DNA of 64,000 nucleotides from Macrostomum lignano. Its lineage: Eukaryota. The notes under the pieces were generated by a model that ran no database searches, had not been told where the DNA came from, and worked only from the letters and a program-made list of their open reading frames with translations. Of the stretch, positions 1,995 through 3,552 are shown piece by piece. How positions within the stretch are numbered: the first letter of the stretch is position 1; each line of letters begins with the position of its first letter. The stretch covers positions 310,001 through 374,000 of the forward strand of contig NIVC01000271.1 in NCBI GenBank assembly GCA_002269645.1, read 5' to 3'. The position numbers and the translations under genes were made by a program.

Positions 1995-3552
1995 AGGAGG
2001 GTTTTTAGACTTACAAAAAGGATTAACAAGCTTACCACCGGTCTTTACTACTGGGAGGTATACAAATGAATTACACCTACCATCACATAATTTCACAGGT
2101 TACCCCGTGGCCTGAGTGGTAGAAGCAAAGCTACTGCTAGTCACTATTAGTGGCGACGTCTTCAAATTGCGTGAAACCCGTCATACAGCTTCAAGTACCA
2201 CTTCAATTGAGAAATCTTTTGAAGGAACAGAGGTAACTCCTCTTCCCAAAGGTAACAAGCTTGAAGACATGGTGGCAATGCGCAGCCAAGCTCCTAAGTA
2301 TTTTAAATATAAGGAGAAGGTTCAGAGAGCAGACGGAGATGGGCGGTAATCATCGCCGCTTAAGGTGTGCTCCAGCCTCTTTCGAAAGATTGAGGGTAAA
2401 CTGCCGGGGACTAGGTTGGATTTGAGATTAAATCCTGACAATACTCCAAAATCTGATTCAATTCCAATAAATGGTATTGATTGGTTAGCATATTATCATG
2501 ACTTAGCATACAGAGATGCTGACAAGAACCCGCCCGAGGAAGCATTAAGATTAAAACATGATGCTGATCAAAAAATGATTCAAGGATTAGATAACTTGCG
2601 GGGGTTGTCGGTTGGGCAAAAATTAACTAGGTGGATGGTTAAAAAGATCTTGCAATCTAAAGTTAAATTTGGTTTAGGAATTAATTACAACCAACATGGA
2701 AGTAATTGTGTCGAATGTTTGTTGTTAAGTGGTAGTGGGCTAAGTTTTGATGAGGCAAAGGTTCTTCATAAAGAATACCGAAAACCTAAATTTTATAGAA
2801 AAATCATGAACTTCAAAAAGAACGAAATTTGGTATGCTGATTTAATGTCGATGCCGAAAGATCTGGGATATAAATATATCTTAACCATATTAGATGGTTT
2901 TACTCGATACGCGTGGGCTGTTCCTTTAAAATCCAAAAAGGGAGAGGAGGTTGCTGCTGCTTTTAGAAGTCTTGGAGAAAAAAGCGAACGTTTGTGTGTT
3001 GACGAAGGAAAAGAATTTTACAATCCTCACATGTATAAATTGTATCATTTTGAAAAAGGACAAGAAAGGAAAAAGGACGCGAATGGGGAGTATATTAATA
3101 AAATTTATTCTATTTATGGAGAAAGTAAAAACGCATTAATAGAAAGATTTAATCGAACTTTAGGTAAGAAATTATGGTTTCAGTTTAGTCTTAATGAAAA
3201 CCAAAAGTGGGTAAAAATATTACCAGACGTAGTGAAAGATTATAACAATTCATATCATTCAGCTATAAAGATGACTCCTCAACAAGCTTATAACAATCCT
3301 GAAAATATTAAGGTTACTTTTGGAGAATTTGAAAAAAAGAAAACTAAACGTTTTAAAGTTGGCGATTCTGTTTATATCTATAAATGGAAAGATAAGTTTG
3401 AAAAGGGAAGAAAAGGATATTGGAAAATAAGTGAGAAATTTACTATTAGTAAAGTTTTAAATACAAAGCCTATAACCTATATAATTGCTGATAAGGATGG
3501 TGAAGAAATATTGGGTTCTTTTTATGAGAACCAGATAATGTCTGCGAACTAA
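1972..3552 (+). CDS. PLA2-integrase fusion, join(1972..2100,2404..3552), 425 aa after removal of the group I intron
   Basis: Exon 1 ends ELHLPSHNFTG and exon 2 starts PGTRLDLRL...DWLAYYHDLAY, restoring the parvovirus-type PLA2 Ca-loop (xTGPG) and HD motif. Downstream is a Polinton-type rve integrase (WYADL, ILDGFTRYAWAVPLK, VDEGKEF, IERFNRTL) with C-terminal FKVGDSV...KFEKG...W...YIIADKDGEEILGSFY. Confidence 0.88.
2101..2403 (+). ncRNA. Group I self-splicing intron, IC1-like, 303 nt, no internal ORF
   Basis: 5' exon ends in U with P1 CAGGU(2096-2100)/GCCUG(2110-2114) and a U.G pair at the splice site. Terminal G2403. P10 CCCCG(2103-2107)/CGGGG(2405-2409). P3 CGUCUUC(2157-2163)/GGAGAUG(2335-2341). 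P4 UGCGUG(2168-2173)/UGCGCA(2279-2284). P5a CUUCAAG/CUUGAAG plus UACC/GGUA and an A-rich bulge (GGUAACAAGCU vs Tetrahymena GGUAAUAAGCU). GAAA-capped P5b, P5c, P6/P6a. P7 G-A(bulge)-GAGCA(2325-2331)/UGCUCC(2368-2373). P8 and P9 hairpins. Confidence 0.92.

Follow-up and report, generated by a model that had tools for sequence, protein, structure and literature searches.

An integrated animal Polinton with a group I intron in its PLA2-integrase gene, and likely homing of the intron by a predicted GGNCC nuclease

Introduction

Nuclear group I introns have been reported as exclusive to the rRNA genes of microbes (PMC3679873), and a 2025 survey places animal group I introns only in placozoans, corals and sponges, where they are mostly mitochondrial (PMC11835236). 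Here we describe a group I intron in a 64,000-nt stretch of Macrostomum lignano DNA (the window, C271:310001-374000 of a 764-Mb assembly). It lies in an integrated Polinton, in a gene that encodes a phospholipase A2-like (PLA2) domain fused to an integrase, and sister introns at the same site carry an open reading frame (ORF) for a nuclease that is predicted to cut GGNCC. We infer that it acts as a homing intron, with a logic of targeting and self-protection for which no description was found.

The closest described systems are viral. Group I introns of giant viruses, such as those in polr2a and polr2b of Bodo saltans virus (PMC5871332), likewise interrupt protein-coding genes at conserved motifs, and occur both with and without a nuclease gene. 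In the present case, by contrast, the host is an integrated animal Polinton, and the nuclease resembles a restriction enzyme rather than an HNH or GIY-YIG enzyme. At least 122 viral loci in IMG/VR share a P4/P6 word with the window intron, the best being 72% identical to it over 192 nt; the P7 sequence of the window was found in none of 122 such loci, nor was a PLA2 or Eco47II-like gene, within the flanks fetched. Group I introns of 309–376 bp that match the Rfam model RF00028 have also been reported in genes of protist polinton-like viruses, although only in three protist groups, where the gene concerned is small and lies upstream of that for the capsid, and where no nuclease was identified (PMC12220804). 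In this respect the account given in the initial annotation of this stretch was overstated. With rDNA introns of the IC1/IE type, such as Tetrahymena L1925, the window intron shares the common P1–P9 core, P2.1, a P5abc with A-rich bulge and GAAA loop, and the G-C pair of P7. Those introns are found in rRNA genes of microbial eukaryotes only (PMC3679873), whereas this one interrupts a provirus's mRNA gene and has no P9.1/P9.2.

Homing endonucleases, including PD-(D/E)xK enzymes and the free-standing nucleases that engage in collaborative homing, are likewise encoded in a peripheral loop of the intron or beside it, and are targeted to the empty site (PMC3943268, PMC11296320). Their long targets, often over 20 bp, are a hallmark (PMC3943268); here the target appears to be 5 bp, made unique by the loss of other sites. 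The type II enzyme Eco47II, which recognises GGNCC (PMC10305163), matches the same Pfam family as the sister ORF. In contrast to restriction-modification systems of that type, no methylase was found in the Polintons, and protection would come from site loss and intron insertion. Passages on homing nucleases or restriction systems in three sources (PMC11296320, PMC10748475 and bioRxiv 10.64898/2026.10.13.758929) describe no animal Polinton intron. No group I intron of an animal nuclear genome came up in our literature search, whose coverage took in few subscription journals, nor did a restriction-type homing nuclease with a purge of its sites.

The intron and its borders

The intron occupies window positions 2101–2403 on the forward strand. 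It is 303 nt long and without an ORF, and it is preceded by the exon residue U2100 and ends in G2403. Exon 1 (1972–2100, forward) ends in a Gly codon of the calcium-loop motif, and exon 2 (2404–3552, forward) encodes the rest of the PLA2-like domain, with the His-Asp pair kept, fused to an rve integrase. The Pfam matches of exon 2 are both below the curated cut-off (rve, E 1e-6; Phospholip_A2_4, E 0.015), and an internal ATG at 2575 stands ahead of the integrase. Both exons are open and in one shared frame, and the unspliced frame runs into a stop at 2113–2115.

Both borders are fixed independently by intron-free copies from the same genome (L071–L073), which read G-P-G over the insertion site, as does P0001, a natural protein that comes from a different data set. 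This confirms the initial annotation, which had proposed a 303-nt insert after an exon U, ending in G, whose removal restores the frame; the intron-less alleles that it proposed to look for do exist, and in the same genome. A spliceosomal GT-AG intron was considered and rejected: there is a GT at 2099–2100, but no frame-keeping AG downstream near the border.

With permissive filters, RF00028 matches the window at 2091–2394 with 61.8 bits (E 4e-15), above the gathering threshold of 50, so that the covariance model bears out the earlier reading. With the fast filters of Rfam no match appears in the window or in three neighbours. Since a match of this strength is lost under default settings, animal genomes probably hold more introns of this kind than have been annotated. 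In the 30 kb upstream, permissive covariance scanning revealed no further group I intron. The fold energy of the intron strand has a z of −2.89, and none of 100 shuffles was equally stable.

Structure of the ribozyme

Helices P3–P9 were assigned on the window copy, and all features given here are on the forward strand. P1 (2096–2114) places U2100.G2110 at the 5′ splice site; its core pairs, and the U.G in particular, are invariant in the 21 distinct 5′ ends used (21 of 25). In P2 (2115–2138), 4 of the 8 pairs differ on both sides when two haplotypes are compared. Next comes P2.1 (2140–2154), with a loop of just 3 nt in the window copy; in the sister family and in the metagenome contig L144 this loop accommodates the Eco47II-like nuclease gene. 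The core (2157–2341) contains P3 (2157–2163/2335–2341), P4 (2168–2173/2279–2284) and P6/P6a (2285–2321), and it is extended by P5abc (2178–2275), which has an A-rich bulge and a GAAA loop at 2211–2214. The region 2325–2373 consists of the guanosine-binding helix P7 (2325–2331/2368–2373) and P8 (2342–2360), and the 3′ end (2374–2403) of P9.0 (2374–2375/2401–2402), P9 (2376–2395) and the terminal residue 2403. Every one of the helices P1, P3, P4, P5abc, P6, P7, P8 and P9 named in the initial annotation is thus present in the window copy. P10 is plausible but weak, with loop letters that vary.

Pairs were counted on 32 of 65 distinct cores, picked for diversity, in an alignment in which 98.5% of 2110 cells are paired. 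Changes on both sides are seen in 19 of 66 core pairs, compared with 8.0 in shuffles and 0–3 in slid controls, although these counts do not stand for independent events, given that it was the window copy that supplied the structure and that the rows are kin. In P7, 4 of the 6 pairs have changed on both sides across the families, and the G-C pair of the binding site is invariant in all 32 rows. Covariation thus backs the guanosine site with a bulged A that had been proposed (GAGAGCA/UGCUCC, with A2326 bulged and the pair G2327-C2372).

By its structure, the window element is a group I intron. The label of a complete IC1 intron, given in the initial annotation, is not established: P5abc with the A-rich bulge and P2.1 are both present, but the P9.1/P9.2 extension, which is a feature of IC1, is absent and the intron ends 8 nt after P9. 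Optional hairpin-like inserts of 30–45 nt, related in sequence, occur in L039, L084, L099, L106 and L342, and sit at several loops of the intron (after P5, P5c and P5a, and in P6b).

Alleles and families

A set of 132 distinct family-1 loci was compiled from the best-scored candidates (40 of 176, and 150 of 513), leaving out the 8 weakest. The window-type intron is present in 105 of them and a second type of core in 24; the remaining 3 are intron-free. A second family, with 60% amino-acid identity to the first in exon 2, has at the same site an intron of 836–895 nt, represented by 28 near-full-length matches with RF00028 scores of 72.7–91 bits. These introns could be delimited in 25 of 30 loci; all end in CUG, and 15 have a full open ORF. 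Among 40 family-2 junctions scored, 25 are intron-free. An independent metagenome contig, L144 (one locus from one metagenome scan), has the same layout of PLA2, intron, ORF and integrase as family 2, with an RF00028 score of 80.6 bits.

P5abc is 90–94% identical between the families, in which four-fold sites of the exons agree at only 24 of 66 positions. Within family 2, the difference between intron-bearing and intron-free alleles amounts to 31% over the last 12 bases of exon 1, to 2–9% over bases 13–90 and to 21% over bases 91–120. The likeness of P5abc, together with the exon differences close to the junction, suggests exchange by homing.

The second type of core is found in L064–L070 and 17 further family-1 loci (for example L066:809–1134; RF00028 31.9 bits). 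It shares P2, P2.1 and P5abc with the window type and differs in P1, P3, P4 and P6–P9, and is apparently a chimeric ribozyme, to judge from this pattern of sequence. Each of the 22 delimited copies of this type contains two additional bases, placed 6 nt into exon 2.

The Eco47II-like nuclease

The ORF in the P2.1 loop of the sister introns matches Pfam RE_Eco47II with 26.2 and 27.3 bits (cut-off 25.9). A D..ELK motif is invariant in 13 homologues. The structure model (pLDDT 92.5) is a compact domain of 161 residues without an added DNA-binding module, and its closest fold is EcoO109I (Foldseek E 1.3e-4; Z 9.8, rmsd (root-mean-square deviation) 3.6, 158 residues aligned), with the next fold at Z 5.9. 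Motif, family profile and fold are all those of a PD-(D/E)xK type II endonuclease. On the basis of its family, its fold and the site loss described below, the protein is predicted to cut GGNCC; EcoO109I cuts RGGNCCY and AvaII cuts GGWCC.

In family 1, the Eco47II-like gene is free-standing and lies just upstream of PLA2 in 36 of the 132 loci, being open in 22 of them. The ratio of nonsynonymous to synonymous polymorphism (pN/pS) of the nuclease is 0.27–0.30 (five distinct copies each). Placed within an optional intron or next to one, with the empty site as its putative target, the gene has the layout of a homing nuclease. The proteins P0006–P0010 and P0014, and also P0018, P0019 and P0024, appear to be encoded in sister introns, as their C-termini read into a translation resembling that of the intron core. 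No cognate methylase was found by Pfam in the ORFs of two complete elements, nor by tblastn in three.

There are twelve near homologues of the nuclease, and 208 in the representative set. Distant homologues in giant-virus contigs have C5 methylases as neighbours or as fusion partners: L146, L147 and L150–L154 carry a convergent pair of C5 methylase and Eco47II-like nuclease, and P0032 is a natural methylase-nuclease fusion. Searches of viral collections with the nuclease alone, with P0003 or with a P5c word as query yielded no true relatives.

Loss of GGNCC and the empty site

The complete intron-bearing element on contig C506 (17,071 bp) contains no GGNCC, with 8.2 expected. Codon shuffles of it give a mean of 15.8, and none of 500 reaches zero. 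Its 4,958 residues also contain no Gly-Pro, against 9.0 expected. The body of the window's element (16,557 bp) has none of 8.3 expected sites, and the complete family-2 element on C67, which aligns with that on C506 over about 2 kb only, has none of 14.6 (P 4.5e-7). By comparison, two neighbouring stretches of other Polinton-like DNA keep the motif (6 against 6.2 expected, and 3 against 3.3). Near-miss motifs are about as frequent as expected, except for CCNGG in C506 (7 against 17). In giant viruses, the GC-rich locus with a methylase-paired homologue has 23 GGNCC where 70 are expected.

The intron-free element C781 has a single GGNCC in 16 kb, and this lies at the PLA2 junction. The motif is present at the empty junction in all 3 intron-free copies of family 1 and in 22 of 25 of family 2, and in none of these 28 copies is there a nuclease gene beside the junction; in family 1 alone (3/3), the association between absence of the nuclease and intron-free alleles is not significant. 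The other 3 of the 25 family-2 copies (L382–L384) have Gly-Gln in place of Gly-Pro at the junction and have thereby lost GGNCC; they are possibly resistance alleles, or the result of decay.

The element and its surroundings

The element has the hallmarks of a Polinton, namely long terminal inverted repeats (TIRs) starting with AGT and a 6-bp target-site duplication. The right TIR (4122–4471) is identical over 350 bp to the left TIR at C271:282527–282876, and is followed by GAGATA (4472–4477, forward), repeated ahead of the left end. As the TIRs are 100% identical, integration was recent. Upstream of the PLA2-integrase gene are genes of PolB, ATPase and capsid type. DNA_pol_B_2 is matched with E 2e-19, and Pox_A32 above the cut-off in a sister copy; the capsid is a double jelly-roll protein in family 2, and family 1 has capsid look-alikes at 0.98. 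For an adenain-type protease and a minor capsid protein there was no Pfam match, and candidate ORFs were picked by position and by eye. The window's own element is interrupted by insertions, with several genes split. Its upstream slot is taken by a free-standing endonuclease VII/HNH-like gene (1425–1994, forward; PHROGs endonuclease VII, E 2.6e-7) with a stop at 1761–1763.

Contamination by a protist or fungus was considered and rejected. Wnt genes are present on C506 and C67, contigs that also hold complete elements, and innexins are abundant; moreover, the stretch is contained in 19 of 24 listed sequencing runs from 8 studies with a single organism label. Together with the structure and the TIRs, this sustains the central proposal of the initial annotation, that an integrated animal Polinton carries a group I ribozyme within a protein-coding gene.

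Bordering on the right TIR is a separate element rich in repeats (4500–7560), with an AGTAGT-like end near 7555 and a PC4-like ORF (weak Pfam match) at 5573–6022. Further downstream are pieces of Mab-21/cGAS-like receptor genes (16041–17357 and about 21100–21800, both on the reverse strand; Mab-21_C over the cut-off), adjoining an ankyrin-like ORF, and Gypsy-type retrotransposon ORFs (18553–20293 and 38113–41783). In family-2 elements (C67:353938–355089, C273, C716 and C1391) the primase/D5-type module varies between copies, as does a PolB-like gene with an endonuclease VII domain, a pattern of replication-module swapping.

Discussion

The observations concern the parts and borders of the intron, its two alleles, a nuclease with an EcoO109I-like fold in three settings, the absence of GGNCC and of a methylase, and the GGNCC at the empty site. 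The reading that we consider likely is that the intron of the PLA2-integrase gene self-splices, and that it homes by means of the predicted GGNCC nuclease encoded in sister introns or next to the gene. The initial annotation was thus incomplete: the intron is polymorphic and mobile, it has nuclease-bearing sisters and sits on the one GGNCC site that cannot be recoded, in an element otherwise free of the motif, and most of its sisters end in A.

We propose the following mechanism. Codons for Gly-Pro always form GGNCC, and the conserved calcium loop of PLA2 therefore cannot be recoded. A methylase-less GGNCC cutter would be tolerable to a 17-kb virus only if all other sites were lost and this one were split by the intron. 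The intron would split GGNCC in the DNA, and splicing would restore the protein. As a small viral genome has lost all other sites, a 5-bp cutter would become effectively site-specific: in intron-free relatives the nuclease would make what is essentially a single cut, at the insertion site, the repair of which from an intron-bearing genome would result in homing. The intron would then be both the cargo of homing and the means of self-protection, in the role that a methylase has in ordinary restriction-modification systems, and the ORF-less intron of the window would be an immune member, mobilised in trans. For this full scheme, which may be called 'restriction-splicing' and which combines a site-purging GGNCC homing enzyme with intron immunity and with the first group I ribozymes, many of them ending in A, to be resident and active in animal chromosomes, we regard the chances as evenly balanced.

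A number of observations weigh against it. Host DNA has 1.3 GGNCC per kb, so that toxicity would be expected of a simple 5-bp cutter unless the integrated copies are silent; this is the weak point of the scheme, which would need silence of the integrated gene, use at a lytic stage, or extra specificity. The RE_Eco47II score is marginal, and the free-standing and L144 proteins fall under the cut-off (19.1 and 18.5). The site loss has exceptions: in the common intron-free haplotype of family 2, that of C781, a second GGNCC lies in a terminal region, about 730 bp upstream, C273 has one further GGNCC, and six AT-rich giant-virus loci with a homologous system have 13 against 20.6 expected. The copies are close kin, and the locus counts are not independent events. 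With regard to splicing, no exon-exon joint over the intron was found in contigs of three presumed-RNA runs and one other (of 24 listed), although contigs drop rare forms, and none of the runs listed as containing the stretch is on record as RNA; one assembled contig spans exon, intron and exon unspliced. Among the 86 window-type introns that were delimited, the last residue is A in 64, in every case after CU, and G in 22. Finally, the PLA2 frame is closed by the two extra exon-2 bases of the second core type, provided that these copies use the same 3′ site, and the integrase has its own ATG, so that splicing may be dispensable in many copies.

It is therefore worth asking whether introns ending in A could splice. 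An A-ending sister intron scores 64.2 bits with RF00028. In the exon-2 PLA2 codons ahead of the internal ATG, pN/pS is 0.07 in both A-ending and G-ending copies (53 of 64, after 11 with broken frames were dropped, and 22 of 22), and in exon 1 it is 0.25 and 0.29, respectively. The equal constraint on PLA2 fits splicing with a terminal A, but it could also have been inherited through recombination. The CU of P9.0 is kept in all 64 A-ending introns and lost in 11 of the 22 that end in G (CAG in 9, AUG in 1, CGG in 1), as though docking of a terminal A depended on P9.0. A terminal-A group I intron is reportedly also present in Coxiella. From a coral mitochondrial intron without a terminal G, ligated exons were obtained at low efficiency (PMC6545197). 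The suggestion in the initial annotation that the intron is under selection for splicing thus stands as regards purifying selection on the structure and the flanking exons; a spliced joint was not seen in the contigs of the four runs.

Could the homing be of an ordinary kind? An Eco47II-like or HNH-type nuclease might recognise a long target, as known homing endonucleases do, thereby avoiding toxicity to the host (PMC3943268), and GGNCC might have been lost for some other reason, for example the restriction-modification system of a co-infecting giant virus that was also the source of the nuclease gene. The nearest full restriction-modification homologues are indeed in giant-virus contigs, and giant viruses commonly have ribozyme cores of this type. 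The occurrence of an HNH/endonuclease VII-type gene in the upstream slot of 93 of the 132 family-1 copies, the window's included, speaks for this explanation and counts against ours, and intron-free elements without the nuclease are also nearly free of GGNCC. On the other hand, the compact nuclease has no added DNA-binding module, it is missing from all 28 intron-free copies, and the motif that has been lost is the recognition sequence of its family and also that of the insertion site, while other Polinton-like stretches in the same genome keep it. We consider this explanation rather unlikely, though the strongest of the alternatives.

Two further explanations give homing or splicing a smaller part. 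The nuclease could be primarily a viral weapon against host or competitor DNA in the lytic phase, with an intron that merely protects a site that cannot be recoded, homing being incidental or historical. The free-standing copies of the gene, many of them open, speak for this reading; the family-2 copies that lose the site by a Pro-to-Gln change achieve the same without an intron, and interference with co-infecting viruses has been proposed for the intron nucleases of Bodo saltans virus (PMC5871332). However, in family 2 and L144 the gene has its place within the intron, in the manner of homing genes, distant families have parts of the intron in common, and the exon differences near the junction resemble co-conversion. 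As a full explanation it is improbable, but it is compatible with the homing that we propose and does not exclude it. Less probable still is that the intron is an inert relic, spliced in a past free-virus stage and no longer in integrated copies, with the integrase made from its own ATG and PLA2 dispensable. The lack of a junction contig, the A-ending majority, the frame-closing bases and the broken state of the window's element would all be accounted for. Such a relic is difficult to reconcile with the equal constraint on the PLA2 codons in A-ending and G-ending copies and with the recent insertion indicated by identical TIRs, and the coral intron argues that the lack of a terminal G need not prevent ligation.

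The consequences of our preferred reading, homing by a GGNCC nuclease, extend beyond this locus. Over 150 group I intron copies reside in the chromosomes of an invertebrate, hidden from standard Rfam filtering, and they offer a natural panel of ribozymes that end in A. If the scheme is correct, a short-site restriction enzyme would have been made specific by genome-wide loss of its sites, and splicing would have replaced methylation. The absence of a motif, together with the loss of Gly-Pro, would then be a signature by which similar systems may be sought, and from which a free, co-infecting stage of animal Polintons may be inferred.
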